Source of the DNA: an uncultured Bacilli bacterium
Lineage (GTDB): Bacteria; Bacillota_I; Bacilli_A; RF39; UBA660
Direction: 5' to 3'
Length of the DNA stretch: 64,000 nt
Assembly: GCA_947581765.1 (NCBI GenBank)
Contig: CANPVU010000001.1
Coordinates: 5,513-69,512 of the forward strand
Numbering within the stretch: position 1 is the stretch's first letter; every line of letters begins with the position of its first letter. Made by a program: the position numbers and the translations under genes. Under the pieces are notes generated by a model. It ran no database searches, was not told the origin of the DNA, and saw only the letters and a list, made by a program, of their open reading frames with translations. Shown one piece after another: positions 3,639-59,360 of this stretch.

Positions 3639-4472
3639 TTAATCTTGTTTAACAAATATTATTTCTACGGAATGATTATTTCTTTTATCTATTGGTGGTA
3701 ATTCCATATAATTTCCATATAAGTGTTTCAAGAACTCGTCATAATTTTGAGGGCCATTAAAAAATAAATTCTCAAATTCGTATAGAGCACCTTTTCCATA
3801 CACACTTTTAGGCATCATATCTTTAAATTTATACATTCCCATAAAATTTATAATATACTGCGATTTTTTTATACTACATTTTTTCATCACTTTATCAAGT
3901 TTATACCACATTTTTTCATATGAAAATTTTTTTTGAATTGATGTATGTCTTACAATCCATATTATAATATTTTCATACCAATGTCTCTTTTTATTCAAAG
4001 TAACAATTTCGTCGAATACGGAAATTTGCAACATCATTCTGCGATACAGTAAATGAATTTTTCTTAATCCGATTTTTATCTTATTCTTTGGCATGCCATC
4101 TAGTGGAAATACATCAAGCCAAGCATCACAAAACTCTCCATTTTTATTGTGAGTTCTATATAATTTAATTGAAGGATTTGTTATTCTCAAATAGTATCTA
4201 TGAACATTTTTATCATATAAGAAATGTTTTGCAATATATGGATTATTTAACTCATTTGGTAATACTTCTAATAATTTTTCATAGTCTTCCCTAGGCATTC
4301 TTATATCAGCATCATCATCCCATGGGATAAATCCTTTATGCCTTACAGCACCGAGAAAAGTACCTGCACTTAAATAATATGTAAGATTATTTTTAGAGCA
4401 AATTCTAACAATTTCCTTAAGCATTTCTAACTCAACTAATTGAAGTTGCCTTATGTTATCTACATTATTCAT
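3639..4472 (-). CDS. LicD-family phosphotransferase (phosphocholine/polyol-phosphate transferase)
   Basis: [31 protein letters not shown], the LicD/fukutin-like nucleotidyltransferase-fold signature. Confidence 0.8.
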   Translation of the reverse strand: MNNVDNIRQLQLVELEMLKEIVRICSKNNLTYYLSAGTFLGAVRHKGFIPWDDDADIRMPREDYEKLLEVLPNELNNPYIAKHFLYDKNVHRYYLRITNPSIKLYRTHNKNGEFCDAWLDVFPLDGMPKNKIKIGLRKIHLLYRRMMLQISVFDEIVTLNKKRHWYENIIIWIVRHTSIQKKFSYEKMWYKLDKVMKKCSIKKSQYIINFMGMYKFKDMMPKSVYGKGALYEFENLFFNGPQNYDEFLKHLYGNYMELPPIDKRNNHSVEIIFVKQD

Positions 4473-4488
4473 TTTTTTCCTTTCATAG

Positions 4489-5328
4489 TTACTCGTCTAA
4501 AATAGTAACATGGGCATTTTTTTCGCTATCTTTTGGAGGAATCATATAATCACCATACATTTGTCTCAACACACCATTATAATTTTCTGGCCCAAATAAC
4601 ATATAGTTTTCAAATTTATACTTTTTTCCATTACCATAGTAACATTTTGGAAACATTTCTTTGAATTTATATTGACCCATAAAATTCACAATATAATTTG
4701 AGTTTTCATATGAATATTTTTTTAATAATTTGTCAATTTTATTTAACCACTTGTAAGTATTTTGTTTTCTACCAAAGCCAGTAATCATAACAAATTTTAT
4801 TATTACTCTTTCAGATAAAGGTCGATTAGGTCTTTTTAAATTAACTTTTTCAAAACACGAAATATGATACATAGCTCTAGCAACCAACAATTTTAGCATA
4901 TGAATTTTTCTAATAATAAAATTGTTAGGCATTCCATCTAATGGAAAAATATCAACCCAAACACATTCATTTCTTTCTTTTATACTTCCTAATCGTTTTA
5001 AATTATGTCGTGTATCAACTATTCTTGAAAAATAATAATGGTGTGATTCACTATTCAAATATGTTTGTAACTTTAAATATTCAGGCAAATCTTCAACTAT
5101 CTTTTCTAAAAAAATTTCATACTGTTTTCTTGGTATACCAATATCAATATCATCATCCCATGGGATAAAACCTTCATGCCTTATTGCCCCTAATAAAGTT
5201 CCTCCCAACATATAATATTCAACGTTATTTTTTTCAAGATAATTATATATATAATCAAAAATTTCTATAATCATTTTTTGTATATTTGTTAGGTTGCTAT
5301 TTGACATATTGTTCTCCTTTTTAACCAT
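4489..5328 (-). CDS. LicD-family phosphotransferase, paralog
   Basis: [31 protein letters not shown]. About 35% identical to the preceding gene. Confidence 0.8.
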   Translation of the reverse strand: MVKKENNMSNSNLTNIQKMIIEIFDYIYNYLEKNNVEYYMLGGTLLGAIRHEGFIPWDDDIDIGIPRKQYEIFLEKIVEDLPEYLKLQTYLNSESHHYYFSRIVDTRHNLKRLGSIKERNECVWVDIFPLDGMPNNFIIRKIHMLKLLVARAMYHISCFEKVNLKRPNRPLSERVIIKFVMITGFGRKQNTYKWLNKIDKLLKKYSYENSNYIVNFMGQYKFKEMFPKCYYGNGKKYKFENYMLFGPENYNGVLRQMYGDYMIPPKDSEKNAHVTILDE

Positions 5329-5764
5329 CTATTTTATTATCTATATCATTTCTTAGCATAGTGCTACTTATACCATCAGTATGTTTTATATATATTAAAT
5401 CTACATTGTATGCAGATAATTCTCTTTCTGTTTTTTTCCACCTAGAATTACCTTTCCAATCATCTCCAATGAAAATAACATTATACTTTAATTGATTCAT
5501 TAATTTTACTTTATCTAATGTATCCACAATTATTGCTTTATCAACTGCCTTAATATTTTCTACAATAGTACATCTATTATATTGATTTATTACAGGAGTT
5601 TTATGTTTATATTCTTGAACAAGCTTATCAGAATTAACACCAACAATTAAATAATCGCAATATTTTTTAGCATTATTTATAAGATTTAAATGACCAATAT
5701 GAAACATATCATATACTCCTTGTGTATATCCTATCCTATATTTTTTCATAATTTTTTCTCCCAC
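5321..5764 (-). CDS. Cytidylyltransferase, TagD/CTP:glycerol-3-phosphate cytidylyltransferase family
   Basis: GYTQGVYDMFHIGHLNLI carries the HxGH motif. About 140 aa. Translationally coupled to the upstream gene. Confidence 0.75.
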   Translation of the reverse strand: MGEKIMKKYRIGYTQGVYDMFHIGHLNLINNAKKYCDYLIVGVNSDKLVQEYKHKTPVINQYNRCTIVENIKAVDKAIIVDTLDKVKLMNQLKYNVIFIGDDWKGNSRWKKTERELSAYNVDLIYIKHTDGISSTMLRNDIDNKIDG

Positions 5765-6162: not shown

Positions 6163-6421
6163 TTAATCCCCTCTATTTAATTTTGAATAAAATTCACAAA
6201 GTGAACCCCTTTGTGAACCCCCCCTGTCAATGTGTATATAATACCACAAATTCGACAAAAGTCAAATCGTTTTTTTTGATTTTTTTTTAAGTTTACATTA
6301 ATTGATATTTTTTATTATATAAAGGCTAATTTAATGAATTCATAAATGGGTTCACTCAATGAGATAATTATTTTTAAAAAATCACTAAAAAAATTGCCTC
6401 TTAGTCGTTTATTAATTAGAT
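6163..6421. promoter_or_regulatory. Divergent promoter region between two cassettes
   Basis: AT-rich 259-bp gap between divergent operons. Palindrome TTCACAAAG-N7-CTTTGTGAA at 6193-6217. GTGAACCC appears twice (6201-6208, 6213-6220), which reads GGGTTCAC on the minus strand. ATAAAT-GGGTTCACT at 6342-6356 sits upstream of the plus-strand operon. Confidence 0.5.
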
Positions 6422-6940
6422 ATGGTGAAAAAAATGAAAAAAAATTTTAGAATTGAGTTTCATGTTCACACAATTGCATCTAAAGATAGTTTGCTTACAA
6501 AATGGTTTATGCTTTTTATGTTAAAAATTAAAAAGATAAATGCTATTGCTATAACAGATCATAATGAGATTAAAGGTGCACTTAAATATAAAGATTTCTT
6601 CAAAAAGAAGAATATTGATGTCATTGTTGGCGAAGAGATTTTTACAGCTGATGGAGAAATAATTGGTCTATTTTTGAAAAGAAAAATTCAAGAAGGAATG
6701 AGTGCAATTGATACTGTGAAAGAAATAATTAATCAAAATGGATTTGTTTATATTCCACATCCATATGATGAAAAAAGAAAAGATACTGTATTAACAAAAA
6801 AAGCATTACAAGAAATATATAAATATGTTGACTTTATTGAAGTCCACAATGGTAGAAACATATCTTACGAATTTTCAGAAAAACAAAATGAAATCGCAAA
6901 TGATTTTACTTTAAGAAAAGTTGTTGGAAATTTTTTTTAA
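6422..6940 (+). CDS. PHP-domain metal-dependent phosphoesterase (short form)
   Basis: N-terminal FHVHTIASKDS and ITDHNEI His/Asp metal-binding motifs of the PHP family. Could be a CpsB-like phosphatase. 172 aa is short for the family. Confidence 0.5.
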   Translation: MVKKMKKNFRIEFHVHTIASKDSLLTKWFMLFMLKIKKINAIAITDHNEIKGALKYKDFFKKKNIDVIVGEEIFTADGEIIGLFLKRKIQEGMSAIDTVKEIINQNGFVYIPHPYDEKRKDTVLTKKALQEIYKYVDFIEVHNGRNISYEFSEKQNEIANDFTLRKVVGNFF

Positions 6941-8070
6941 TAATTAGATTAATTACATTGTAAAGAGGTACATAAATGAAAATAGCAATGATAGGTCATA
7001 AGAGAATACCCTCACGTGAAGGTGGAGTTGAAATTGTTGTAGAAGAATTATCAACTAGAATGGTTCAACTTGGTAACGAAGTTACTTGCTACAATAGACG
7101 TGGTAAACATGTATTAGATAAAAATGAGAAGATTAAAAAATTAAAAGAATATAAAGGTATAAAAATAAAAGAAGTATTAACAATTGATAAAAAAGGTTTA
7201 GCAGCTATGACATCTTCTTTTTTTGGAACATTTAAAATACTTTTTTCTAATGCAGAAATAGTACATTACCATGCCGAAGGTCCATGTGCCATGATTCCAA
7301 TAATTAAACTTTTCTCTAGAAAAAAAGTAATTGCAACAATTCATGGATTAGATTGGCAAAGAGCTAAATGGAAAAATGGCTTTGCCTCCAAATATATAAA
7401 ATTTGGTGAAAAAATGGCTGCTAAGTATGCAGATGAAATAATTGTACTTAGTGAAAACGTAAAAAAATATTTCAAAGAAACATACAACAGGGATACAAAC
7501 TTTATACCTAATGGAGTTTCTAAACCAGAAATAAAAGAAGCAAAAATCATAAATGAGAAATATGGATTAAGAAAAAATGACTACATACTTTTTTTGGGAA
7601 GAATTGTTCCAGAAAAAGGAATTCATTATTTAATTGATGCATTTAACAAAATTAAAACAAACAAAAAATTAGTTATTGCTGGCGGTGCTAGTGATACTAA
7701 TGAATATTATTCCGAGTTAAAAGAAAAATCAGAAAATAATAAAAACATTATATTTACCGGTTTTATTCAAGGGCAAGAATTGGAAGAACTATATAGCAAT
7801 GCATACATATATGTTTTACCAAGTGATTTAGAAGGTATGCCTCTTTCACTACTTGAAGCAATGAGTTATGGAAATTGTTGCCTAACTTCTGATATAGAGG
7901 AATGTGCTACTGTAATAAAAGATAATGGATTAACATTTAAAAAATCAAATATTGAAGATTTAAAAAATAAACTTCAAAAATTATTAGATAAAGAAGACAT
8001 TGTTATTAAGTATAAAACTAATGCTCAAGATTATATTCTAAATAAATATAACTGGGATGACGTTGTTATT
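6901..8070. repeat. Inverted repeat A, left copy (about 1.17 kb, near-identical)
   Basis: By-eye alignment: 6901-8070 matches the reverse complement of about 28365-29535. The match covers the last ~40 nt of the PHP gene, the intergenic RBS and about 1085 nt of the GT4 gene. One indel was seen in the T-run. Confidence 0.8.
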
Positions 8071-8100
8071 AAAACTTTAAAGATTTATGAAAATAAATAA
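6976..8100 (+). CDS. Glycosyltransferase family 4, copy 1 of a duplicated gene
   Basis: EGMPLSLLEAMSYGNCCLTSD motif. Residues 1 to about 362 are identical to the gene at 28335-29456 on the opposite strand. Only the last 12 aa differ. Confidence 0.8.
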   Translation: MKIAMIGHKRIPSREGGVEIVVEELSTRMVQLGNEVTCYNRRGKHVLDKNEKIKKLKEYKGIKIKEVLTIDKKGLAAMTSSFFGTFKILFSNAEIVHYHAEGPCAMIPIIKLFSRKKVIATIHGLDWQRAKWKNGFASKYIKFGEKMAAKYADEIIVLSENVKKYFKETYNRDTNFIPNGVSKPEIKEAKIINEKYGLRKNDYILFLGRIVPEKGIHYLIDAFNKIKTNKKLVIAGGASDTNEYYSELKEKSENNKNIIFTGFIQGQELEELYSNAYIYVLPSDLEGMPLSLLEAMSYGNCCLTSDIEECATVIKDNGLTFKKSNIEDLKNKLQKLLDKEDIVIKYKTNAQDYILNKYNWDDVVIKTLKIYENK

Positions 8101-8109
8101 TATTTTGAA

Positions 8110-9195
8110 AGGAAGATTCTCATGGCAGAGAAAAAATTAAACGGAACCGTAATAGTTACTTATAGATGTAATGCTAGATGTACTATGTGTAATAGATATA
8201 AATGTCCTTCAAAACCTGAAGAAGAACTTAGTGTTGAAACAATAAAAAAATTACCTAAAATGTATTTTACAAACATAACAGGTGGAGAACCATTCATAAG
8301 AGAAGATTTACCAGATATAGTACGAGAATTATATAAAAAATCTGATCGTATTGTTATATCAACTAATGGTTTTTTTACAGATAGAATTATTAAATTATGT
8401 GAAGAATTTCCTAATGTTGGAATTAGAATATCAATTGAAGGATTAGAAGAAACAAATAATAAAATTAGAGGATTAGATGATGGATTTAATAAAGGATATT
8501 CAACACTAAAAAAACTTGTTGAAATGAAACATCCAGATGTAGGATTTGGAATGACTGTACAAGATGCTAATGCAAAAGATTTAGTTGAACTATATAAATT
8601 ATCTGATGAATTAAATATGGAATTTGCAACAGCATCCTTACATAATAGTTTCTATTTTGTAGAGGCAAAAAACATTATTCATGATAGACCAATGGTAGCA
8701 AAAGAATTTGAAAAATTAATTAATGAACTTTTAAAGTCTAACTCTCCAAAAAAATGGTTTAGAGCATACTTTAATCATGGATTAATTAATTATATTTATG
8801 GTCAAAAACGTTTGTTACCATGTGATATGGCATTTGATACATTTTTCATAGACCCATATGGTGATGTAATGCCTTGTAATGGAACTAAAGACAAAGAAAT
8901 AATGGGAAATTTAAATGAACAAACTTGGGAAGAACTTTGGAATTCAGAGAAAGCAGAAAGAGTAAGAAATAAAGTACGACATTGTGATAGGCAATGTTGG
9001 ATGATTGGATCTGTTTCTCCAGCAATGCACAAATATATATGGAAACCAGCATGGTGGGTATTTAGACATAAGTTTTTAAAATTTTTTAAACAAAATAAAT
9101 ATTCAATGTATGAAAACAAAATTGTTAGAGATTTTAAAGATGGAAAAGTTAGCAAGGAACAATTGGATAAATGTAGTACATGTGATATGAATTGT
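8110..9195. repeat. Inverted repeat B, left copy (about 1.09 kb, a few percent diverged)
   Basis: Matches the reverse complement of about 24855-25912. A few substitutions (K/R, S/T, Q/E) and differing upstream RBS context. Confidence 0.75.
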
Positions 9196-9309
9196 GTAGT
9201 AAATAATGGATTATCTACTGCTTCACTTGAACAATTAAAAAATAAAACTGGTGAAGAAATTGTTAATGCAGATATAGAAAAACAATTTAAGAATTTTGGT
9301 GATAATTAA
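8122..9309 (+). CDS. Radical SAM / SPASM-domain protein, copy 1
   Basis: CNARCTMC (Cx3Cx2C) at residues 16-23. C-terminal Cys-rich region (CDRQCW...CSTCDMNC) consistent with an auxiliary Fe-S (SPASM/twitch) cluster. Residues 1 to about 355 are near-identical to 24786-25889 (-). Confidence 0.8.
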   Translation: MAEKKLNGTVIVTYRCNARCTMCNRYKCPSKPEEELSVETIKKLPKMYFTNITGGEPFIREDLPDIVRELYKKSDRIVISTNGFFTDRIIKLCEEFPNVGIRISIEGLEETNNKIRGLDDGFNKGYSTLKKLVEMKHPDVGFGMTVQDANAKDLVELYKLSDELNMEFATASLHNSFYFVEAKNIIHDRPMVAKEFEKLINELLKSNSPKKWFRAYFNHGLINYIYGQKRLLPCDMAFDTFFIDPYGDVMPCNGTKDKEIMGNLNEQTWEELWNSEKAERVRNKVRHCDRQCWMIGSVSPAMHKYIWKPAWWVFRHKFLKFFKQNKYSMYENKIVRDFKDGKVSKEQLDKCSTCDMNCVVNNGLSTASLEQLKNKTGEEIVNADIEKQFKNFGDN

Positions 9310-12358: not shown

Positions 12359-13499
12359 CATTTTATCTATAATTAGGCAAAAATTAATAAAGTTTTTTTT
12401 CCATTGTTTTTTTATCTTTAAAATTAAAAATAATAGAATTTTCCTTATGAACTATAATGGAAAAGGTTATGGTGACAGTCAAAAATACATAAGTGAAGAG
12501 TTGTTAAAAGATGATTATTATGAAATTGTTTGGGCTGTTAATAATATAGAATCTCCTTTTCCAAAAGAAATAATCAAAGTTAAACGAAATTCAATAAAAT
12601 ATTTTTATTATTTGTCAACATCTAAGGTACTTATAAATAATTGTAGATTTCCATTATTTTTTACAAAAAGAAAAGAACAGTATTATATTCAAACTTGGCA
12701 TAGTCCATTAAGATTAAAAAAAATTGAAATGGATGCAAAATCTAATTTTTCTAAATATTATATTTTGACTATGAAAAATGATTCAAAATACATTGATGAA
12801 ATATTGAGTGGTTGTAAATTTAGTTATGATATCTATTCTAGAGCATTTTTATATTCTGGAAAAATATCGAAGACTGGTACACCTAGATGTGATGTTTTTT
12901 TTGATGAAAAAAATAAAGTATCGTTAAAAAAAAGATTAACAAGAGAATTAAATTTGGACTCGAGAAAAAAAATAATTTTATATGCACCAACTTATAGAAA
13001 AAATTGCAGTATGAATGATGTTATGATGAATATAAAAAAGGTATACAGAAAAATAAGTAATAATTATGAACTATTAGTTAGATTTCATCCATTAACTAAG
13101 AAAATAGATTTACAGAAAAATATAAAAAATGTTACATGTTATCCTGATATACAAGAATTATTAACAATTTCAGACATTTTAATTACCGATTATTCAAGTT
13201 GCTTATTTGATATGTTAATTGCAGAAAAAAAATGTATTTTACTACTAAAAGATATAAAAAATTATTTACAAAAAGAGAGAGATTTGTATTTTGATATAAA
13301 TGAGTTACCTTTTCCAAAAGCATATACTGATGATGAATTAATATGTATAATTGAAAACTATGATAAATATTACAATAAAAATCAAATGAATAAATTTAAA
13401 AGAAAAATTGGTTTATATGAACACGGAAATGCGGCTTTTCTTGTAAAAAAAAGAATTGATTCAATTGTGAAAGAAGGAAAAAAATATGAAAAAATATAA
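12351..13499 (+). CDS. CDP-glycerol glycerophosphotransferase (TagF/TagB family)
   Basis: TagF-family C-terminal features: YAPTYRKN, HPL, ITDYSSCLFDMLIAEKK. 382 aa with no transmembrane segment. Confidence 0.7.
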   Translation: MSDILSIIRQKLIKFFFHCFFIFKIKNNRIFLMNYNGKGYGDSQKYISEELLKDDYYEIVWAVNNIESPFPKEIIKVKRNSIKYFYYLSTSKVLINNCRFPLFFTKRKEQYYIQTWHSPLRLKKIEMDAKSNFSKYYILTMKNDSKYIDEILSGCKFSYDIYSRAFLYSGKISKTGTPRCDVFFDEKNKVSLKKRLTRELNLDSRKKIILYAPTYRKNCSMNDVMMNIKKVYRKISNNYELLVRFHPLTKKIDLQKNIKNVTCYPDIQELLTISDILITDYSSCLFDMLIAEKKCILLLKDIKNYLQKERDLYFDINELPFPKAYTDDELICIIENYDKYYNKNQMNKFKRKIGLYEHGNAAFLVKKRIDSIVKEGKKYEKI

Positions 13500-13914
13500 A
13501 ATAGGATATACATCAGGCGTATTTGATATGTTTCATATAGGCCATTTAAATATTTTAAAAAAAGCTAAAGAAAATTGCGATTATTTAATTGTTGGAGTAA
13601 CAACAGATGAACTAGCACTATATAAAAATAAGGTACCAATTATTCCATTTTCAGAACGAAGACAAATTGTTGAAGCAATTAGATATGTTGATATGGTTAT
13701 TCCACAAGAAAATATGAACAAGAAAATAGTTTGCCAAAAATATAATGTAGATGCTATATTTGTTGGTGATGATTGGAAGGGAACCGAAAAGTGGAATAAT
13801 ATAGAATCAGAGCTTAATCAAATTGGAACAGATGTAGTATATTTTCCATATACAAAAGGAACTTCTTCTACAATATTAAGAGAAAAATTATTAAATAAAA
13901 ATAATGGTGAATAA
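13486..13914 (+). CDS. Cytidylyltransferase, TagD family
   Basis: KIGYTSGVFDMFHIGHLNILKKAKENCDYLIVGVTTDE. Confidence 0.75.
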   Translation: MKKYKIGYTSGVFDMFHIGHLNILKKAKENCDYLIVGVTTDELALYKNKVPIIPFSERRQIVEAIRYVDMVIPQENMNKKIVCQKYNVDAIFVGDDWKGTEKWNNIESELNQIGTDVVYFPYTKGTSSTILREKLLNKNNGE

Positions 13915-15318
13915 ATGTCTAGAAATAAAGATTTTATAATGAACACAATAATAATATTTATTGGTAAATTCGCAACTCAATTCATGTCTCTTTTACTTTT
14001 ACCTTTATTTACAAGATATTTGTTGTCAGAAGATTATGGATTAGTTGATTTATTTCAAACATATATCTCTTTATTTACTCCTATTCTTACTTTTAGAATA
14101 GATAGTGCACTATTTAGATTTTTGGTTGATAAGAGAAATAATTACAAAGAAATAAGTAAAACGATAAGTAACTCAATTTTAATTTTATCAATAAGTCTGA
14201 TTATAACAACATCAATCGGACTCGTCTTATTTAAATTTATAAATATAAAGTATTTTGGATATGTAATATTAAATTTGATTGTTTTAATGATAAGCAGTAG
14301 TTTACTCCATGTATTAAGAGGATTAGGAAAAACTAAAGATTATTCAATTGCCAGTATCATTACTGGAATTATTACATTAATAACAAATATTATTTTAATA
14401 ATTGTTGTTCATATGGATGCTAAAAGTATTTTAATATCATCATCTATTGCAAATTCCTTTTGTATAATTTATATCATAATTAGAAGTAATCTATTCAAAT
14501 ATATAAAATTAAACTTAATTAATTTATCAACATTAAAAGAAATATTAAAATATACTCTTCCTATGATTCCTAACTCACTATCATGGTGGATTGTTAATGT
14601 ATCTGATAGAACAATTATATCATTATTTATAGGAATTGCTTACAATGGAATATATACAGTATCATGTAAGTTTTCTAATATACTAAATAGTATATATTCG
14701 ATTTTTCATTTATCATGGCAAGAAACAGTTATATTACACATTGACGATGAAGATAGTGATAAATATTTATCAACCATGATTAACAAATTATTAAATTTAT
14801 TTTCATCTATGTCAATATTAATAGTAGTAGTTTTACCATTTTTATATGATATATTAGTAGGAAAAGAATATTTAACATCATATAATTATATACCAATTTT
14901 ATTATATTCAAACTCTTGGAATGTACTTATAAGCTTAATAGGTGCAATATATGTAGCGCGGAAGGAAACAAAAAAAGTTGCAAATACTACAATAATATCA
15001 GCAATAATAAATTTAATAATACATTTTTGTTTAATTAAATTTATAGGATTATATGCAGCTTGTATCTCTACATTAATATCATATATGGTAATGGCAATAT
15101 ATAGATATATTGATAGTAAAAAGTATGCAAATTATAAATTGGACATCAAAAATATAATTATATTTACAATTATATTTATATTAAGTTATATTATGTATTT
15201 GATAAACAATATATTCATTAATACAATTAATTTAATAATAGCTTTAGTATATATCTTTATAGTTAATAAATATATTTTTAAGTATAAAGATATATTTATA
15301 AATAAAAATAAATATTAA
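13915..15318 (+). CDS. Wzx-type oligosaccharide flippase (MOP superfamily)
   Basis: 467 aa, 12-14 transmembrane helices, polysaccharide biosynthesis protein architecture. Confidence 0.7.
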   Translation: MSRNKDFIMNTIIIFIGKFATQFMSLLLLPLFTRYLLSEDYGLVDLFQTYISLFTPILTFRIDSALFRFLVDKRNNYKEISKTISNSILILSISLIITTSIGLVLFKFINIKYFGYVILNLIVLMISSSLLHVLRGLGKTKDYSIASIITGIITLITNIILIIVVHMDAKSILISSSIANSFCIIYIIIRSNLFKYIKLNLINLSTLKEILKYTLPMIPNSLSWWIVNVSDRTIISLFIGIAYNGIYTVSCKFSNILNSIYSIFHLSWQETVILHIDDEDSDKYLSTMINKLLNLFSSMSILIVVVLPFLYDILVGKEYLTSYNYIPILLYSNSWNVLISLIGAIYVARKETKKVANTTIISAIINLIIHFCLIKFIGLYAACISTLISYMVMAIYRYIDSKKYANYKLDIKNIIIFTIIFILSYIMYLINNIFINTINLIIALVYIFIVNKYIFKYKDIFINKNKY

Positions 15319-15353
15319 ATTTTAACTATTTTTAGTTTTTTAGACCAAATAAT

Positions 15354-15382
15354 AAAGTTGTATTTTTACAACTTTTTATTAT
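15354..15382. terminator. Bidirectional rho-independent terminator between convergent operons
   Basis: AAAGTTGTA-TTTTT-ACAACTTT hairpin flanked by A-run and T-run. Lies between the Wzx stop (15318) and the minus-strand gene stop (15388). Confidence 0.6.
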
Positions 15383-15387
15383 GTTTA

Positions 15388-16104
15388 TTATTTAATTTTT
15401 TTCTTAACCAACAGATATCCTTCAAATAATTCTAAATCTTCTTTAGTAGTTATTTTTATATTTGTTTGACTTCCTTTAGAGAAGTATATTGGAATACCTA
15501 ATTTATACATCAATGTAGTAGTATGGGGTTCTACTTTGTCTATAATGCCTGTTTTAATAGCCTCTTCATATATATTTTTTATTACTTCAAACTTAAAGGC
15601 ATGTGGGGAATTCATACAAACTATTGTTTCTCTATCTATATAATTTGTAGATTTTTCACCATCAGAATCTCTATATCCAGATAATAGATAGAATGGAGTT
15701 GTTGATATTGCATTGCCTTTTTTATTACATACTTTAATTGAATCTAAAATTATTTCTTCACTTACAAATGGAGAAGCACCAAAATGAATTATTACATTGT
15801 CATTTTCATTAATTTTTCCAATTAAATTATTTACTCCATTTAATACAGAATGTTGGAAGTCTTTTCCTCCTGGTGTAATCCATTTTACCTTAGTATATTT
15901 GTTTTCTGTTACTATCTTTGATAAATAATCTATATAATCTTTATGACATACAATTTCTATTTTATCGATTTCGTTGCTATTTTGAAATGCTTCAATTGTG
16001 TAAGCTAATACAGGCTTTCCAAAAATTTCAATAAATTGCTTTGGGATATCTGCACCTAATCTTGTACCAACTCCACCTGCTAAGATTATTGCTATATTAC
16101 TCAT
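15388..16104 (-). CDS. IspD/TarI-family cytidylyltransferase (CDP-polyol, e.g. CDP-ribitol, synthase)
   Basis: MSNIAIILAGGVGTRLGADIPKQFIEIFGKPVLAYTIEAF, the N-terminal signature of 2-C-methyl-D-erythritol-4-P / ribitol-5-P cytidylyltransferases. Confidence 0.75.
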   Translation of the reverse strand: MSNIAIILAGGVGTRLGADIPKQFIEIFGKPVLAYTIEAFQNSNEIDKIEIVCHKDYIDYLSKIVTENKYTKVKWITPGGKDFQHSVLNGVNNLIGKINENDNVIIHFGASPFVSEEIILDSIKVCNKKGNAISTTPFYLLSGYRDSDGEKSTNYIDRETIVCMNSPHAFKFEVIKNIYEEAIKTGIIDKVEPHTTTLMYKLGIPIYFSKGSQTNIKITTKEDLELFEGYLLVKKKIK

Positions 16105-24785: not shown

Positions 24786-25889
24786 TTATTCATCAGGCAA
24801 TCCATTTTTTATAACACAATTCATATCACATGTACTACATTTATCTAATTCTTCCTTGGTAACTTTTCCGTCTTTAAAATCTCTAACAATTTTGTTTTCA
24901 TACATTGAATATTTATTTTGTTTAAAAAATCTTAAAAACTTATGTCTAAATACCCACCATGCTGGTTTCCATATATATTTGTGCATTGCTGGAGAAACAG
25001 ATCCAATCATCCAACATTGCCTATCACAATGTCGTACTTTATTTCTTACTCTTTCTGCTTTCTCTGAATTCCAAAGTTCTTCCCAAGTTTGTTCATTTAA
25101 ATTTCCCATTATTTCTTTGTCTTTAGTTCCATTACAAGGCATTACATCACCATATGGGTCTATGAAAAATGTATCAAATGCCATATCACATGGTAACAAA
25201 CGTTTTTGACCATAAATATAATTAATTAATCCATGATTAAAGTATGCTCTAAACCATTTTTTTGGAGAGTTAGACTTTAAAAGTTCATTAATTAATTTTT
25301 CAAATTCTTTTGCTACCATTGGTCTATCATGAATAATGTTTTTTGCCTCTACAAAATAGAAACTATTATGTAAGGATGCTGTTGCAAATTCCATATTTAA
25401 TTCATCAGATAATTTATATAGTTCAACTAAATCTTTTGCATTAGCATCTTGTACAGTCATTCCAAATCCTACATCTGGATGTTTCATTTCAACAAGTTTT
25501 TTTAGTGTTGAATATCCTTTATTAAATCCATCATCTAATCCTCTAATTTTATTATTTGTTTCTTCTAATCCTTCAATTGATATTCTAATTCCAACATTAG
25601 GAAATTCTTCACATAATTTAATAATTCTATCTGTAAAAAAACCATTAGTTGATATAACAATACGATCAGATTTTTTATATAATTCTCGTACTATATCTGG
25701 TAAATCTTCTCTTATGAATGGTTCTCCACCTGTTATGTTTGTAAAATACATTTTAGGTAATTTTTTTATTGTTTCAACACTAAGTTCTTCTTCAGGTTTT
25801 GAAGGACATTTATATCTATTACACATAGTACATCTAGCGTTACATCTATAAGTAACTATTACGGTTCCGTTTAACTTTTTCTCTGCCAT
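24786..25889 (-). CDS. Radical SAM / SPASM-domain protein, copy 2
   Basis: MAEKKLNGTVIVTYRCNARCTMCNRY..., near-identical to 8122-9309 over about 355 aa. Distinct 13-aa C-terminal tail. The ORF-track N-terminal extension MILM is probably not used. Confidence 0.8.
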   Translation of the reverse strand: MAEKKLNGTVIVTYRCNARCTMCNRYKCPSKPEEELSVETIKKLPKMYFTNITGGEPFIREDLPDIVRELYKKSDRIVISTNGFFTDRIIKLCEEFPNVGIRISIEGLEETNNKIRGLDDGFNKGYSTLKKLVEMKHPDVGFGMTVQDANAKDLVELYKLSDELNMEFATASLHNSFYFVEAKNIIHDRPMVAKEFEKLINELLKSNSPKKWFRAYFNHGLINYIYGQKRLLPCDMAFDTFFIDPYGDVMPCNGTKDKEIMGNLNEQTWEELWNSEKAERVRNKVRHCDRQCWMIGSVSPAMHKYIWKPAWWVFRHKFLRFFKQNKYSMYENKIVRDFKDGKVTKEELDKCSTCDMNCVIKNGLPDE

Positions 25890-25912
25890 GAGAATCACCT
25901 TTCTTTTTATTA
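24855..25912. repeat. Inverted repeat B, right copy
   Basis: Reverse complement matches 8110-9195. Confidence 0.75.
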
Positions 25913-25941
25913 ATTTTGTTATAAAAATATATTTACATTAA

Positions 25942-27111
25942 TTAATTATTATTTTTAAATTCATTTAAATACTTATTAGAAATTACATCCCAGCTATATT
26001 TTTTTACAGCAATATCCCTAGATTTTTTACATATTTTTTTTCTTTCTTGTTCATTTAATATGTAATTTTTTATTAAATTATCAAAACTTTCTTGATTTTC
26101 ATAAAATAAAATTACTTTTTTTAAATCATCTGATACTTCTAATATGTTTTTTTTGTTCATTATTACTGGTAATCCGCACGACATCGCCTCTAATATAACT
26201 AAACTAAATGCTTCAGCTGTAGATGGAAAGATAAAAGCTTTAGCACTGTTATAAAATTTATTTATTTGTTCACCAGGTTGTAGTTCTCCAACATACTCAA
26301 CTTTATTTTTAAGATTATTATTATACACATAAGTATCTATTGCATCTTTATACTTACTATCAATAATTCCACCGGCATATAAATATTTATATCTCTCATC
26401 GTCTTGTAGAAGTTTTGTTAAATTTTTAATAGCTCCTAATTGGTTTTTTCGTTCGCATACTGATCCAGATTGAAAAAACACAAACTTTTCTTGATTACTG
26501 TTTATTTCCTTATATATTTCAGTATTAACCCCATTATCAATTTGTACTAACCTTTTTTCATCTATACCTAAATGATTAATAAAATGATTTGCAGTAATAT
26601 TATTTAGGACAAATACTTTATCAGCTTTTTTGATAGAATAAACCTCTTGAAAATATTTTTTTCTTATGATTGAGGAAATTTTTTCCCACTCATTATTCCA
26701 TATATAACTATGAACTGTATAGAATAAATGTACTCTCTTTCTTATTTTTTTAGAAGTCATAATAAGAAAGAAAAACATATTATATTGATTATGAAAATGT
26801 ATATACAAATTTTCTTTTGAAAATTTTATTTCTTTTTTCAAAGATTTTGCTAAAGATAATGAGTATAGTACTCTTTTAAATTTATGTAAAATTCCCAAAG
26901 TTGTATCTTTTTTTCTAAAACATTTTGGAATATTCACTTCTCTAATTTTTAAATTTGTTTTTTTTCTATTTTCGTCTTTAACATCAAATATTTCATAATT
27001 GATTTTTTTGTTTTGAAAAGATTTTGATAACTCTTCTACTACTATTTCAGTAGCAGCTCCCATATTTGCTGGAATTGAGGTGTAACCAGTTCCTACTTCG
27101 ATTATTTTCAT
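25942..27111 (-). CDS. Glycosyltransferase family 4
   Basis: FPSTAEAFSLVILEAMSCGLPVI motif. Confidence 0.7.
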   Translation of the reverse strand: MKIIEVGTGYTSIPANMGAATEIVVEELSKSFQNKKINYEIFDVKDENRKKTNLKIREVNIPKCFRKKDTTLGILHKFKRVLYSLSLAKSLKKEIKFSKENLYIHFHNQYNMFFFLIMTSKKIRKRVHLFYTVHSYIWNNEWEKISSIIRKKYFQEVYSIKKADKVFVLNNITANHFINHLGIDEKRLVQIDNGVNTEIYKEINSNQEKFVFFQSGSVCERKNQLGAIKNLTKLLQDDERYKYLYAGGIIDSKYKDAIDTYVYNNNLKNKVEYVGELQPGEQINKFYNSAKAFIFPSTAEAFSLVILEAMSCGLPVIMNKKNILEVSDDLKKVILFYENQESFDNLIKNYILNEQERKKICKKSRDIAVKKYSWDVISNKYLNEFKNNN

Positions 27112-27126
27112 AAATTTATCACTACC

Positions 27127-28326
27127 TTAAATATTTTTATATAAGCTTATTAATTTTTCCGCATAATTTTTTATTGTAACAACTTTATTATTTTTACAAT
27201 TTTTAGAATATCTTTCTAACTTTTGTTTATCATTCCACAACATTAAAATTTTATTTTTTAATTCTGTTTTATTTTTTGCTTCAAATATTTCTCCATTTAT
27301 ACCTTCATTAATTAATTCTGGAATTCCACCCATATTAGAACCAATAACTGGAGTTCCACACATTATTGATTCAATCACGGAAAATGGGCAATTTTCATAC
27401 CATTCAGAGGGGCAAATACTAATTTTAGCTTCTGCAATTAAGCTTTCAAGCTCCTTTCCACTTTTAAATCCAACAAACTCAGCATTAGTAATTTTTTGAA
27501 TTTTATTTTCTAAAGGTCCATATCCAGCAAAAACAAATTTAATATTTTTTAACTCTTTAGCTACTTCAATTAAAGTTTCTACCCCTTTATCTTTACATAA
27601 TTTTCCAAAATAAATTATATAGTCTTTTTTTTCATAATTATTAGTTTCAATTTTTTTATCAACATAATTATGAATGACAATTGTTTTATTCTTAAATAAA
27701 TCACACGTATCCAATTTACTTTTCATAAAATAACTAGGACATATTATTTTATCAACATAATTATATGTTTTTCTTTTATGCCAATAAAAACTATCAAGCA
27801 TTGCTATTAAACTTTTGATTCTAGAATTTTTCATACACTTACTTTTAAAACAATTTATATATTTTCCATTTAAACATTTTTCACATGGATTGATATTATT
27901 ATCAAATAATCCGTGACTTGGGCAAACTAATTGATAATCATGTGCAACATAAAAAACTTTTATTTTTTTATTCTTTTTTTTGTATATTCCTATAGCATCT
28001 ATAATTGATGGTGTAAGATGATATTCTATATTGTTCAATATAACTAAATTTGGTTCATAAACATTAAGTAATCTAATCATTTTTTTCTTTGCTTCTTTGT
28101 TGTTTATCATGCTTTTTACCTGAAAAATATTTTTAAATGTTTTGGGTGAAAAATCTTTTTCGGAAACATATAAATTATAATCATTCTTTAATATATTTTT
28201 TGAATTTTTCATTCCAAAATATTGAACCTCATGACCTTGTAATTTAAAAAAATTGCCTAGTTTAATTACATAAGTTTCAGCACCACCTTTTTGGTATAGG
28301 AACTTATTAACTAATAAAATTTTCAT
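27127..28326 (-). CDS. Glycosyltransferase family 4
   Basis: ICPSEWYENCPFSVIESIMCGTPVIGSNMGGIPELI. Confidence 0.7.
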   Translation of the reverse strand: MKILLVNKFLYQKGGAETYVIKLGNFFKLQGHEVQYFGMKNSKNILKNDYNLYVSEKDFSPKTFKNIFQVKSMINNKEAKKKMIRLLNVYEPNLVILNNIEYHLTPSIIDAIGIYKKKNKKIKVFYVAHDYQLVCPSHGLFDNNINPCEKCLNGKYINCFKSKCMKNSRIKSLIAMLDSFYWHKRKTYNYVDKIICPSYFMKSKLDTCDLFKNKTIVIHNYVDKKIETNNYEKKDYIIYFGKLCKDKGVETLIEVAKELKNIKFVFAGYGPLENKIQKITNAEFVGFKSGKELESLIAEAKISICPSEWYENCPFSVIESIMCGTPVIGSNMGGIPELINEGINGEIFEAKNKTELKNKILMLWNDKQKLERYSKNCKNNKVVTIKNYAEKLISLYKNI

Positions 28327-28334
28327 ATTAGCAC

Positions 28335-29456
28335 CTACTTTTTATATAAATTTAATGTTATTTGTACAACATCATCCCAGTTATATTTATTTAGAATATA
28401 ATCTTGAGCATTAGTTTTATACTTAATAACAATGTCTTCTTTATCTAATAATTTTTGAAGTTTATTTTTTAAATCTTCAATATTTGATTTTTTAAATGTT
28501 AATCCATTATCTTTTATTACAGTAGCACATTCCTCTATATCAGAAGTTAGGCAACAATTTCCATAACTCATTGCTTCAAGTAGTGAAAGAGGCATACCTT
28601 CTAAATCACTTGGTAAAACATATATGTATGCATTGCTATATAGTTCTTCCAATTCTTGCCCTTGAATAAAACCGGTAAATATAATGTTTTTATTATTTTC
28701 TGATTTTTCTTTTAACTCGGAATAATATTCATTAGTATCACTAGCACCGCCAGCAATAACTAATTTTTTGTTTGTTTTAATTTTGTTAAATGCATCAATT
28801 AAATAATGAATTCCTTTTTCTGGAACAATTCTTCCCAAAAAAAGTATGTAGTCATTTTTTCTTAATCCATATTTCTCATTTATGATTTTTGCTTCTTTTA
28901 TTTCTGGTTTAGAAACTCCATTAGGTATAAAGTTTGTATCCCTGTTGTATGTTTCTTTGAAATATTTTTTTACGTTTTCACTAAGTACAATTATTTCATC
29001 TGCATACTTAGCAGCCATTTTTTCACCAAATTTTATATATTTGGAGGCAAAGCCATTTTTCCATTTAGCTCTTTGCCAATCTAATCCATGAATTGTTGCA
29101 ATTACTTTTTTTCTAGAGAAAAGTTTAATTATTGGAATCATGGCACATGGACCTTCGGCATGGTAATGTACTATTTCTGCATTAGAAAAAAGTATTTTAA
29201 ATGTTCCAAAAAAAGAAGATGTCATAGCTGCTAAACCTTTTTTATCAATTGTTAATACTTCTTTTATTTTTATACCTTTATATTCTTTTAATTTTTTAAT
29301 CTTCTCATTTTTATCTAATACATGTTTACCACGTCTATTGTAGCAAGTAACTTCGTTACCAAGTTGAACCATTCTAGTTGATAATTCTTCTACAACAATT
29401 TCAACTCCACCTTCACGTGAGGGTATTCTCTTATGACCTATCATTGCTATTTTCAT
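28335..29456 (-). CDS. Glycosyltransferase family 4, copy 2 of the duplicated gene
   Basis: Identical to 6976-8100 except the last ~12 aa. Confidence 0.8.
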   Translation of the reverse strand: MKIAMIGHKRIPSREGGVEIVVEELSTRMVQLGNEVTCYNRRGKHVLDKNEKIKKLKEYKGIKIKEVLTIDKKGLAAMTSSFFGTFKILFSNAEIVHYHAEGPCAMIPIIKLFSRKKVIATIHGLDWQRAKWKNGFASKYIKFGEKMAAKYADEIIVLSENVKKYFKETYNRDTNFIPNGVSKPEIKEAKIINEKYGLRKNDYILFLGRIVPEKGIHYLIDAFNKIKTNKKLVIAGGASDTNEYYSELKEKSENNKNIIFTGFIQGQELEELYSNAYIYVLPSDLEGMPLSLLEAMSYGNCCLTSDIEECATVIKDNGLTFKKSNIEDLKNKLQKLLDKEDIVIKYKTNAQDYILNKYNWDDVVQITLNLYKK

Positions 29457-29535
29457 TTATGTACCTCTTTACAATGTAATTAATCTAATTATTAAAAAAA
29501 ATTTCCAACAACTTTTCTTAAAGTAAAATCCTTAG
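28365..29535. repeat. Inverted repeat A, right copy (includes a 40-nt remnant of the PHP gene 3' end)
   Basis: Reverse complement of 29457-29535 reproduces GATTTTACTTTAAGAAAAGTTGTTGGAAATTTTTTTTAATAATTAG...AAGAGGTACATAAATG found at 6901-6978. Confidence 0.8.
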
Positions 29536-29650
29536 TGAAAAATAATTTAAATGATTAATAATAAAAACTCATAGTTTTCTTATGTTTAAGATAAAACTAT
29601 GAGTTTTTTCTATAATGGGTTCACTTTAAGAAAATTTTAAATATCATAAA
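29457..29650. promoter_or_regulatory. Divergent promoter region with 16-bp perfect inverted repeat and TATAAT-GGGTTCACT element
   Basis: AAAAACTCATAGTTTT (29563-29578), 14-nt spacer, AAAACTATGAGTTTTT (29593-29608), then TATAAT (29611-29616) and GGGTTCACT (29617-29625). This is about 26 bp upstream of the 29651 start. Confidence 0.5.
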
Positions 29651-30529
29651 ATGTTTTTACTACAAAAAAAGAACAAATTGAAATGTTATGGAGGAAATAT
29701 GACAAAAAATAACTTATCATCAGTGCAAGCTCATGTGTTAGATATATTACATCAATTGATTGAATTATTTGAAAAAGAAAATATTTCTTATTACATCCTT
29801 GGTGGTACTATGTTAGGTGCTATTCGTCACAAAGGATTTATTCCATGGGATGATGATGTTGACATAGGTATACCCAGGGAAGACTACGAACGATTTTTAA
29901 AAGAATGTAACTCTAAACTATCACAATATTTAAAAATCAGAACATATAATGATGAATCATATCATCATTATTACTATGCAAGAGTAGTAGATACAAGATA
30001 CCATATAAAAAGAAAAGGTAGTATTAAAGAAAGAGAAGAAGAATTATGGGTAGACATTTTTCCTTTAGATGGAATGCCTAATAGCAAAATAAAAACAATA
30101 ATTCATAAAATTAAATTGTTGTTTATAAGACTGTTATATCATATGTCATGCTTTGATAAAGTTAATATAAAACGTCCGGGAAGGCCTGTAATTGATAGGA
30201 TAATAATTAAAGTTCTTATGGTTACCCATATATGCTCCTCTCTTAATAGTACTAAGCTTCTGAATAAAATTGACAAACTTTTAAAAAAATACCCTATTTC
30301 TAGTTCAAAATATGTATTTAATTTTATGGGAAGTACCCATGCATTTCGTGAGATTTTTAATAAAGAGTGTTTCGCAGAAGGTACTAAATATGATTTTGAA
30401 GATATGAGATTAATTGGTCCCAAAAACTATGATTTTTATTTAAAAAAACTGTATGGAGATTATATGAAACTGCCTCCCGAAAACGAAAGAAATATTCATG
30501 CAGATGAATTCGTTGAAAAGGAAGAATAG
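29651..30529 (+). CDS. LicD-family phosphotransferase
   Basis: [31 protein letters not shown]. Confidence 0.8.
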
Positions 30530-40673: not shown

Positions 40674-41597
40674 ATGATTTATATGAGAAAGAAAAAAGAA
40701 AATAAAGAATATTTAGGATATTATATAAATGAATTTATAAATATATCCAAGATAAGGAATAAGGAGTCTACTTATTCAAATTATTTATATACTATTAATT
40801 CTAGAATGATTGTATTATATAATACTAAGATAAAAAATATAGATATTAAGTTTATAAATGAGTATACTAATTATTTATTTGATAAAGGTTTATGTAGTAA
40901 AAGTATTAAAGATACTTTAATACTTTTAAATGAAATATTAAAATTAGCAGATATACATATTAATATACCTATGCCTAAAGTAATTAAAAAAGAAATTTCA
41001 GTATTTAATGAAGATGAACAAATAGAACTTGAAAAATACCTTTTAAATAGTCCTAATAGCGTTAATTTAGGTATATACCTATCACTTTATACTGGAATTA
41101 GAATTGGTGAACTATGCGCCTTAAAATGGGAAAATATAGACCTTATTAATAATAAGATAACTATTAAAAAAACAATGTTAAGAATTAAAGATACAAACCC
41201 TAATAATAGAAACAAAACTAAAGTAATAGTAGATTCACCAAAAAGTACATCATCTATAAGAGATATTCCACTACCACCTTTTATATCATCTATGTTATCT
41301 AAAATAACTAATATATTACCAGAATACTATTTACTTACAAATAGTATATCTTATATAGAACCTAGATTATTATATAAAAAATATAAACAAATACTTAGTG
41401 AATTAAACTTATCTAAATATAACTTTCATACAATGAGACATACATTTGCTACACGTTGTATAAACCAAAACTTCCCTATTAAAATAGTCTCAGAAATATT
41501 AGGACACTCTAGTGTTAAAATAACACTAGATAGATATGTACATCCTAATTATAATGAAAAAGTAAAAATGATGAATAATTTACAAAAATTATATTAA
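40674..41597 (+). CDS. Tyrosine site-specific recombinase (phage integrase / Xer family), stand-alone
   Basis: C-terminal HTMRHTFATRCINQNFPIKIVSEILGHSSVKITLDRYVH (R...HxxR...Y catalytic box) and an N-terminal SAM-like core-binding domain. Probable start at the second ATG (40683), preceded by GAGGA. Confidence 0.8.
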   Translation: MIYMRKKKENKEYLGYYINEFINISKIRNKESTYSNYLYTINSRMIVLYNTKIKNIDIKFINEYTNYLFDKGLCSKSIKDTLILLNEILKLADIHINIPMPKVIKKEISVFNEDEQIELEKYLLNSPNSVNLGIYLSLYTGIRIGELCALKWENIDLINNKITIKKTMLRIKDTNPNNRNKTKVIVDSPKSTSSIRDIPLPPFISSMLSKITNILPEYYLLTNSISYIEPRLLYKKYKQILSELNLSKYNFHTMRHTFATRCINQNFPIKIVSEILGHSSVKITLDRYVHPNYNEKVKMMNNLQKLY

Positions 41598-41654: not shown

Positions 41655-42338
41655 TTACTTAGATCCCTTACGTGATAATACTACTTTAAATGTCTTAAAA
41701 AATATTTTTACATCCATTTTAAATGATACATGATTAGAATAATACTTTTCTAACTCTAATCTCTTATCAAATGTAGTATCACTTCTTCCAGATACTTGCC
41801 AGTATCCAGTAAGACCAGGTTTAGTTTTAACTATATCATTATAGTAAACACCCATATCAAATTTTTCTCTTGGTAGGTAAGGTCTATTTCCTATTAAGGA
41901 CATATCCCCTTTTAATACATTAATTAATTGTGGTAATTCATCTAAAGATGCTATTCTAAGTATTTTCCCCATCTTAGTTATTCTAGGATCATTTTCCAAC
42001 TTTTTATTTATTTTATATTCTTGTGCCAACTCTTTGTTATTTTTAAGAATTTTTTCTAACTCATCATCAGCATTTACAATCATAGTTCTAAATTTATAAA
42101 ATTTAAATAATACCCCATTTTTCCCAATTCTTTTTTGTGTAAAAAATATCGAATGAAAATCCCCAGATAGCATATACGATATCTTTACAATAATAGAAAT
42201 AGGAATTAAAAGTAAACATCCAATAAATGAAAATATAATATCAAAAATTCTCTTTGATATTAAATATAATCTTTGTTTTGAAATACTAGTTGTTTTTACA
42301 TCCATACCAACAACATCAAACTGTGATATTTCATTCAT
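41655..42338 (-). CDS. Initiating undecaprenyl-phosphate sugar-phosphate transferase (Bac_transf family, small form)
   Basis: KRIFDIIFSFIGCLLL...FYKFRTM...DELPQLINVLKGDMSLIGNRP...PGLTGYWQVSGRS, the canonical bacterial sugar transferase C-terminal domain. Confidence 0.8.
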   Translation of the reverse strand: MNEISQFDVVGMDVKTTSISKQRLYLISKRIFDIIFSFIGCLLLIPISIIVKISYMLSGDFHSIFFTQKRIGKNGVLFKFYKFRTMIVNADDELEKILKNNKELAQEYKINKKLENDPRITKMGKILRIASLDELPQLINVLKGDMSLIGNRPYLPREKFDMGVYYNDIVKTKPGLTGYWQVSGRSDTTFDKRLELEKYYSNHVSFKMDVKIFFKTFKVVLSRKGSK

Positions 42339-55440: not shown

Positions 55441-55459
55441 TTCTATCTCCTAAACTACT

Positions 55460-59326: not shown

Positions 59327-59360
59327 ACCCTGTATTTCAAGGATTAAACCAAGAGATACT

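Follow-up and report, generated by a model that had tools for sequence, protein, structure and literature searches.

What keeps two inverted copies of the same glycosyltransferase gene almost identical when they belong to two different surface-polymer loci? This question is raised by a stretch of 64,000 nt from an uncultured Bacilli bacterium (GenBank assembly GCA_947581765.1, contig CANPVU010000001.1, positions 5,513 to 69,512), which was analysed as a whole and is called the window here. The window has a base composition of 25% GC. Four polysaccharide or teichoic-acid-like loci, here A to D, are arranged as two divergent pairs and occupy positions 1 to ~40.6 kb. Loci A and B are convergent glycopolymer clusters of the Wzx/Wzy type, their convergent junction (15318-15388) lies within unique sequence, and each carries a GT4 glycosyltransferase gene inside one arm of an inverted repeat, I1. 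An initial annotation interpreted this repeat as a shufflon-like inversion system or, alternatively, as a record of very recent gene conversion. We consider it likely that I1, together with an adjoining second repeat, I2, constitutes a shared two-gene starter module whose copies are held alike by gene conversion of the kind described for tufA/tufB. The repeats and the genes that they cover are:

6902-8060, plus strand: core of I1 copy A, containing the last 39 nt of the PHP gene, a 35-nt spacer with a ribosome-binding site, and codons 1-362 of GT4-A
28372-29530, minus strand: core of I1 copy B, containing a PHP remnant (29492-29530), the spacer, and codons 1-362 of GT4-B
6434-6940, plus strand: PHP-domain gene (168 aa; Pfam PHP), first gene of locus A, with its last 39 nt inside I1
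6976-8100, plus strand: GT4-A glycosyltransferase (DUF1972 and Glycos_transf_1)
28335-29456, minus strand: GT4-B glycosyltransferase, the same as GT4-A through residue 364
8061-8114, plus strand: diverged tail of GT4-A (last 10 codons and stop) and an A-specific spacer before the radical SAM gene of locus A (rSAM-A)
8115-9212, plus strand: I2 copy A, covering the first ~364 codons of the radical SAM/SPASM gene 8122-9309 (Pfam Radical_SAM and SPASM)
24799-25896, minus strand: I2 copy B, in the radical SAM/SPASM gene of locus B (24786-25889)
25918-28338, minus strand: B-specific segment between I1 and I2, with GT4b (27127-28326) and GT4c (25942-27111), both Pfam GT4

A repeat search of the window placed the I1 arms at 6894-8093 and 28339-29538 (1200 nt, 99% complementary), and blastn aligned 6899-8093 with 29533-28339 at 98.996% identity, with 12 mismatches and 0 gaps. 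Compared base by base, 6902-8060 is the reverse complement of 28372-29530 without a single mismatch or indel over 1159 nt, a match that cannot have arisen by chance because of its length. Eleven of the 12 mismatches are concentrated in the final 33 nt (8061-8093, ~67% identity) and the remaining one is position 6901, at the outer edge. Precise alignment therefore confirms the near-identical inverted repeat that had been noticed by eye. The T-run indel reported along with it is not present between the copies in the window; a difference in T-run length was seen only in strain L086.

Copy B carries 39 nt of the end of the PHP gene (29492-29530, DFTLRKVVGNFF followed by the stop) and then an identical 35-nt spacer with its ribosome-binding site, in agreement with the ~40-nt gene tail described before. 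The outer junction of this copy, where the B flank meets the PHP remnant, is independently present in contigs L096 and L097. Both copies had been placed immediately inside divergent promoter regions. This holds for copy B, which abuts an intergenic region, but copy A is set apart by the whole PHP gene. The GT4 proteins of 374 aa (A) and 373 aa (B) differ solely past residue 364 (IKTLKIYENK versus QITLNLYKK), so that the difference is confined to the last 10 and 9 residues, at the C-terminus as proposed. The best NCBIfam match of GT4-A is the Cps2T rhamnosyltransferase, well under the cutoff.

I2, which the initial annotation missed, lies directly downstream of I1 and aligns 8090-9212 with 25917-24799 at 98.4% identity. 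The encoded radical SAM proteins are 98% identical, and the tail of the A protein is longer by 28 aa. I1 and I2 adjoin in locus A, whereas 2.4 kb lies between them in locus B; this extra segment maps at about 8090-8093 of locus A. Identity between the loci drops sharply on either side of this heterology (8061-8114), where the 11 mismatches of 8061-8093 are followed by mismatches and indels at 8095-8114, and it decays gradually at 9080-9212. By blastn, the neighbouring paralogous segments are just 70-74% (LicD) or 87% (cytidylyltransferase) identical. The repeat copies, at 100% and 98.4% in the window and probably ~99% in truth, are far closer than these paralogs (70-87%), and the GT4-rSAM module was therefore homogenized recently.

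Next, we compared the gene order with that of 76 related loci, many of them from gut Firmicutes. In these relatives, GT4 is usually followed by GT4b, sometimes by GT4c, and then by the radical SAM gene (L003, L004, L008-L012, L015, L020, L021, L024-L026), and all four genes are present in, for example, L009, L011 and L025. None of the relatives examined for gene order has the radical SAM gene immediately after GT4. Because the order GT4-GT4b-(GT4c)-rSAM is the usual one, it is locus B that holds the ancestral layout. A PHP homolog upstream of GT4 was found in 0 of the 76 loci, which makes the PHP-GT4 junction a derived trait of locus A. Since the PHP tail nonetheless precedes GT4-B, the transfer ran from A to B, and the earlier proposal that copy B derives from a PHP-GT4 context is borne out. 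In locus B, the ancestral order has been kept and the 5' end replaced with sequence from locus A. The repeats contain GT4 and radical SAM genes and the PHP tail only, and an origin as a mobile element or insertion sequence was rejected on these grounds. A scan of GTDB genomes returned no conspecific genome (top GT4 match 79%), JGI metagenomes scanned with a 26-nt pattern from the core end gave 0 matches, and the same metagenomes scanned with the PHP protein gave one irrelevant 54% fragment.

To what extent can the identity and orientation of the copies be trusted? The window proteins occur on SPAdes-style contigs of one ENA project and on Logan contigs, and in at least nine other assemblies, whose data do not resolve the repeats, contigs break off at the repeat borders. 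Contigs from the PHP side (L087-L090) stop 34-60 nt into I1, and those from the D side (L096, L097) stop 60-128 nt into its B copy. A 33.9-kb contig, ERZ27249221 NODE_581, extends out of locus C across I1, I2, the interior, the second copy of I2 and the 2.4-kb segment, and ends just inside the second copy of I1. The GT4b-GT4c segment was recovered as stand-alone contigs of 1.9-3.3 kb with repeat borders (L081-L085, L102). All four unique-to-repeat junctions and both inner junctions were recovered separately (L090/L094, L096/L097, L080-L085, L101/L102, L086, L093). The convergent junction 15318-15388 is identical in ERZ27249211 (L001) and, since both ends of NODE_581 are anchored, that contig must cross it as well. 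As every junction was recovered independently, a hairpin or chimeric assembly was rejected as the source of the repeat.

Three other assemblies, evidently of the same strain, differ from the window inside the repeats only. ERZ27249211 shows 0 differences in ~39 kb of unique DNA and 19 in the repeats, and the differences in the ERZ27059539 and ERZ27249221 loci are likewise confined to the repeats. We compared window positions 6902-9212 with the same-strain contigs L001, L002, L079, L091-L093 and L101. Within each assembly both copies share the interior alleles, and the haplotype differs from assembly to assembly. Sites less than 55 nt apart always co-vary (6919/6927/6931/6971, 7758/7773, 8664/8700 and 8862/8899/8950/8960), while sites at least 60 nt apart assort independently (7221 versus 7281, 8802 versus 8862, 8960 versus 9080). 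This linkage pattern suggests paralog differences that were collapsed by a k=55 de Bruijn graph, in which a collapsed edge would hold one allele and then be reused for both copies. Contigs of two other assemblies that are anchored in the flanks show copies differing at 3-4 sites in the first 70 nt. In ERR10663677, copy A has A, G and T at 6919/6927/6931 and copy B has G, A and C; ERZ27249221 shows the same split, plus C versus T at 6971. Because such contigs, anchored in unique flanks, show the copies differing, the true identity of the copies is probably ~99%, near that of tufA/tufB. The 100% identity of the core in the window depends on the assembly. For the same reason, how these contigs orient the 20.2-kb segment and the nested 15.5-kb segment does not count as independent evidence. 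The existence of two copies is secure, and only their exact identity and relative orientation are unreliable. In practical terms, 100% identity and orientation between such repeats in short-read metagenomes are the assembler's choices.

These data fit best with the second suggestion of the initial annotation, very recent gene conversion, given the collapse of identity at the heterology, the variable end of the radical SAM tract and the re-association of flank alleles. The repeat anatomy, the copying direction, the ancestral order, the assembly breaks and the mosaicism are shown by the sequences, and we infer conversion as the homogenizing process. The module would consist of a Cps2T/WchF-like GT4 and a radical SAM/SPASM enzyme heading the two convergent loci. 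Locus A would be a derived paralog that lacks GT4b and GT4c and has the PHP gene placed in front, and RecA-type non-reciprocal exchange would keep the two copies ~99% alike, with at least one transfer from A to B that carried the PHP tail. The 2.4-kb heterology would block exchange, and therefore the GT4 tails and spacers at 8061-8114 stay diverged and identity decays gradually at 9080-9212. Both polymers probably start from one lipid-linked intermediate, built by the single WbaP-like transferase (41655-42338) and next by this GT4. The same recombination could also invert the 20-kb segment or the nested 15.5-kb segment as a by-product, which need not be a designed switch.

The homogenized tracts end at the heterology, as in tuf-type conversion, and their ends vary. 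The flank alleles at 6919-6971 are of the A set at both flanks in the window and in ERZ27059539, of the B set at both flanks in ERZ27249211, and of one set per flank in the other two data sets (ERR10663677, ERZ27249221). Among assemblies whose unique DNA is identical, all four combinations of flank alleles at 6919-6971 are represented. Unique sequence is no more than a k-mer's length away from these positions, and matching junction k-mers should therefore exist in the reads. A second strain (L080) has a copy B with A-type alleles at 9141-9160, and the tract end therefore differs among strains. Allele re-association and a variable tract end fit gene conversion in both directions.

Several points weigh against this interpretation. 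The left boundary of I1 (6901/6902) is abrupt. Older homology is absent outside it, and it resembles an illegitimate join or an original duplication endpoint rather than the end of a conversion tract, whereas the other borders lie within older, diverged homology. Much of the concerted variation between assemblies bears the k=55 bubble-collapse signature, the alleles were compared on unphased assembly contigs, and part of the evidence for exchange could be assembly artefact or heterogeneity within the sample. The common lipid-linked starting intermediate is probable rather than demonstrated.

The abrupt left boundary with its PHP tail, and the 0 mismatches over the core in the window, would also be expected if the A segment had been copied into locus B just once and recently, without ongoing exchange and with similarity that reflects youth. 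We regard this as unlikely. The order GT4-GT4b-GT4c-rSAM in locus B is ancestral, and it is unlikely that 6902-9212 was pasted as one piece and that two GT4 genes were then inserted at precisely this point. Furthermore, the diverged tails beside the 2.4-kb segment look old, the tract end varies by strain, and the combinations of flank alleles vary by assembly.

The inversion model has to be considered together with the regions upstream of the module and with the following features:

up to 6162, minus strand: locus C, with cytidylyltransferases, two LicD genes, GT4 and others
6200-6356: invertible element of 157 bp between the divergent loci C and A
6200-6217 and 6339-6356: left inverted repeat AGTGAACCCCTTTGTGAA and right inverted repeat, the reverse complement of AGTGAACCCATTTATGAA
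6434-15318, plus strand: locus A, with PHP, GT4, radical SAM/SPASM, HAD-like, Wzy, TagF-like, cytidylyltransferase and Wzx genes
29456-15388, minus strand: locus B, with GT4, GT4b, GT4c, radical SAM/SPASM, GT2 and an unknown protein, then a sulfatase-family protein, a DXD glycosyltransferase, Wzx, TagF-like and LicC/LicA-like genes
29608-29625, minus strand: lone inverton repeat motif AGTGAACCCATTATAGAA in the B/D intergenic region
29651 to ~40623, plus strand: locus D
40674-41597, plus strand: tyrosine recombinase gene (307 aa; Pfam Phage_integrase and SAM-like domain) at the end of locus D
41655-42338: WbaP-like initiating transferase, downstream of locus D and beside the tyrosine recombinase gene
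42488-44023: LCP gene, downstream of locus D

The element at 6200-6356 has the anatomy of a promoter inverton. Its 18-nt repeats match at 16 of 18 positions and enclose 121 bp, and the best-scoring promoter-like site of a consensus scan, TTGACT-16-TGG-TATTAT (10 of 12 matches), lies inside it on the minus strand at 6265-6238. This site faces locus C in the window and PHP and locus A in the flipped contigs. Relative to PHP, the segment is reversed in L087, L088 and L089 (three samples, from a strain ~98% identical), and L090-L094 share the orientation of the window. Flipped in silico, the window segment reproduces the L087-L089 sequence apart from one C-run change. Both orientations, with breakpoints at the repeats, are thus observed, and they come from different strains rather than from one sample. 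The motif GTGAACCC occurs four times in the window (6201, 6213, 6348 and 29617) against 0.22 expected, and the motif AAGTGAACCC was not found in the loci of more distant relatives. The tyrosine recombinase has Xer-like NCBIfam matches under the cutoff, and homologs with 34-38% identity lie 2-3 kb from a GT4 gene in two Lachnospiraceae loci (L013 and L014); it is a candidate invertase for this element. The 157-bp inverton is a better candidate for a real switch than the 1.17-kb repeat.

Other observations concern the same site. In L087 (ERZ27249097 NODE_1754, a strain ~98% identical), a completely different locus lies divergent from PHP, with Alg14/Alg13-like genes, two GT4 genes, Wzy, Wzx, LicD and TagF. 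The change of sequence falls on the outer border of the left inverted repeat, and whole loci have therefore been exchanged between strains at the inverton border. L086 (Logan SRR27728189) starts with 38 unrelated, GC-rich nt (positions 1-38) that meet the window sequence precisely where the right repeat ends on its outer side (window 6356/6357), reflecting either a chimeric junction or some rearrangement at the site of recombination. Immediately next to the lone motif of the B/D intergenic region is a strong hairpin and U-run upstream of GT4-B (29558-29625). The motif may be left over from a second inverton, or it may serve long-range site-specific inversion together with the left repeat at 6200.

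If the copies crossed over within the identical core, positions 8061-28371 would be inverted, and the upstream promoter region and PHP would be exchanged between loci A and B. Recurrent RecA-dependent inversion could thereby act as a switch that moves the only strong, invertible promoter, together with PHP, from locus A to a promoter-less locus B, which we think quite unlikely. Such a switch is consistent with inverted repeats of at least 1.1 kb and ~99% identity, with signs of exchange between the copies, with the position of locus A behind the promoter inverton, and with short-read assemblies that are compatible with other isomers. A terminator-like stem-loop and U-run (29558-29613, minus strand) also lies upstream of the PHP remnant and GT4-B, reading into locus B; the 110-nt stretch 29531-29640 folds at a minimum free energy of -22.5 kcal/mol (z = -5.2). 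The consensus scan found no sigma-70-like site on the minus strand at 29400-29750, which covers the 194-nt B/D intergenic region. The missing promoter is, however, a result of a consensus scan in DNA of 25% GC. Taken together, the lack of a sigma-70-like site for locus B and the upstream hairpin are circumstantial points that keep this model alive at low probability.

No repeat-spanning assembly has a contig with PHP-GT4-GT4b or with B flank-GT4-rSAM-A-HAD, and L086, from an unrelated sample, joins PHP, GT4 with the A tail and the radical SAM gene. We searched for the alternative isomer through the exact-protein contexts of GT4-A, GT4-B, cluster variants, PHP variants, GT4b and GT4c and through the first genes of loci C and D, and did not find it; most of these contigs end at repeat borders. 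Every repeat-spanning contig has the arrangement of the window, and because short-read contigs otherwise break or thread a collapsed consensus, the absence of the other isomer is uninformative. The prediction that inversion would re-pair the GT4 C-termini is wrong. The 10-residue tails lie outside the identical core and remain with their own downstream genes, and therefore a crossover in the core gives the same two GT4 proteins and no new protein. GTGAACCC, the sole over-represented inverted motif, is absent at the repeat borders (6901/6902, 8060-8093 and 9212). Site-specific recombination at these borders was rejected, since no motif is present. The homology is gene-length, and neither short border sites nor alternative protein C-termini link the repeat to the shufflons. 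The shufflon-like switch was thus partly mis-stated and is not needed to explain the data.

A further elaboration, which strikes us as decidedly unlikely, is a two-tier switch in which the 157-bp inverton would aim one strong promoter at locus C or at PHP and locus A, and homologous inversion across the 1.16-kb GT4 repeat, and across the nested 1.1-kb rSAM repeat, would place either locus A or a terminator-shielded, promoter-less locus B behind it. If true, one promoter would serve three glycopolymer loci; the inversion model in general would imply a compound switch for surface variation that uses both homologous and site-specific recombination. Finally, SPAdes-style metagenome contigs, k=55-linked variation of the repeat interior and contig breaks at repeat borders in many assemblies could hint that the second copy, or the presence of both copies on one contig, is an assembly artefact, but this is very improbable, as all four unique-to-repeat and both inner junctions are found in unitig-level or independent contigs and the unique convergent junction is identical in ERZ27249211.

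Elsewhere in the four loci, diverged inverted similarity is present among cytidylyltransferase genes (83-87%; 5622-5758 versus 13477-13613) and among LicD genes (70-74%; 4262-5244 versus 29754-30225), and these sequence similarities indicate an older mirrored duplication of the region. Further downstream, the gene of a 515-aa serpin-domain protein (46043-47590) has a non-specific endonuclease gene on one side and a LysR regulator gene on the other. A large serine recombinase gene (59361-60950) lies beside a PBP transpeptidase/PASTA open reading frame (region 58479-60950) whose match begins at profile position 120 of 299, and this combination may reflect a mobile or excisable element interrupting the PBP gene. 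Large surface-protein genes with Listeria-Bacteroides (Flg_new) and Big_2 repeats occupy 51685-56839 and 61269-64000. The last of these has diverged tandem units, with successive copies ~400-500 nt apart (repeat families D1-D6).

How does this locus compare with known systems? Shufflons and hsdS systems (R64 Rci; S. pneumoniae hsdS/PsrA) also have inverted repeats within coding regions, where inversion could in principle connect a constant 5' part with alternative 3' parts (PMC4948785). Those systems rely on a dedicated recombinase that acts at short specific sites or sub-genic repeats, and new protein variants result. The GT4 repeat, in contrast, is nearly a whole gene, its borders carry no recombinase motif, and its 10-residue variable tails stay with their own downstream genes. 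The inversion model of the initial annotation would, by analogy, amount to a mechanism of the Campylobacter fetus sap type, where homology-based inversion in conserved 5' regions would reassign one promoter among surface-structure cassettes. According to work attributed to Tu et al. in 2001 and to Dworkin and Blaser in 1997, sap inversion in these 5' conserved regions reportedly moves a single promoter. Unlike in C. fetus, the arrangement of the window is the only one observed, the lack of a promoter in locus B is no more than suggested, and the cassettes are whole polysaccharide loci rather than S-layer genes.

The 6200-6356 element, rather than the 1.17-kb repeat, resembles the invertons of Bacteroides polysaccharide loci and of Bifidobacterium breve eps2, with short inverted repeats, divergent polysaccharide operons and both orientations. 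In B. breve, the promoter is reoriented at an intergenic inverted repeat and so switches between the opposed operons eps2A and eps2B (PMC4155821), and this is the closest described analogue. The host here is an uncultured, low-GC, Bacilli-like gut bacterium; the recombinase (40674-41597) is a candidate, and the two orientations come from different strains. The element adds a poorly known low-GC lineage to those with phase-variable control of polysaccharide loci.

The module itself is most similar to tufA/tufB of Salmonella and E. coli, which are likewise ~1.2-kb, gene-length inverted copies with ~99% identity, and in which conversion is stopped by large heterology and tracts end inside the gene. 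The tuf genes span 1185 nt in inverse orientation with 12 differing sites, and their conversion is blocked by large sequence differences (PMC5485169). They are 762 kb apart and form a dosage duplicate, whereas the copies in the window are 20 kb apart and head two different polysaccharide operons. Recombination between the tuf genes is also said to be linked to chromosomal inversions, a finding ascribed to Hughes in the J Mol Biol in 2000. In addition, a second adjacent gene is shared here and is split off in one copy by 2.4 kb, and conversion at the GT4/rSAM locus is deduced from sequence rather than measured. If our interpretation is correct, this would be a clear natural case of tuf-like concerted evolution acting on biosynthetic genes common to two surface-polymer loci of an uncultured gut bacterium. 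The repeat pair would then reflect a known kind of process, concerted evolution of inverted duplicated genes, beside a conventional promoter inverton.

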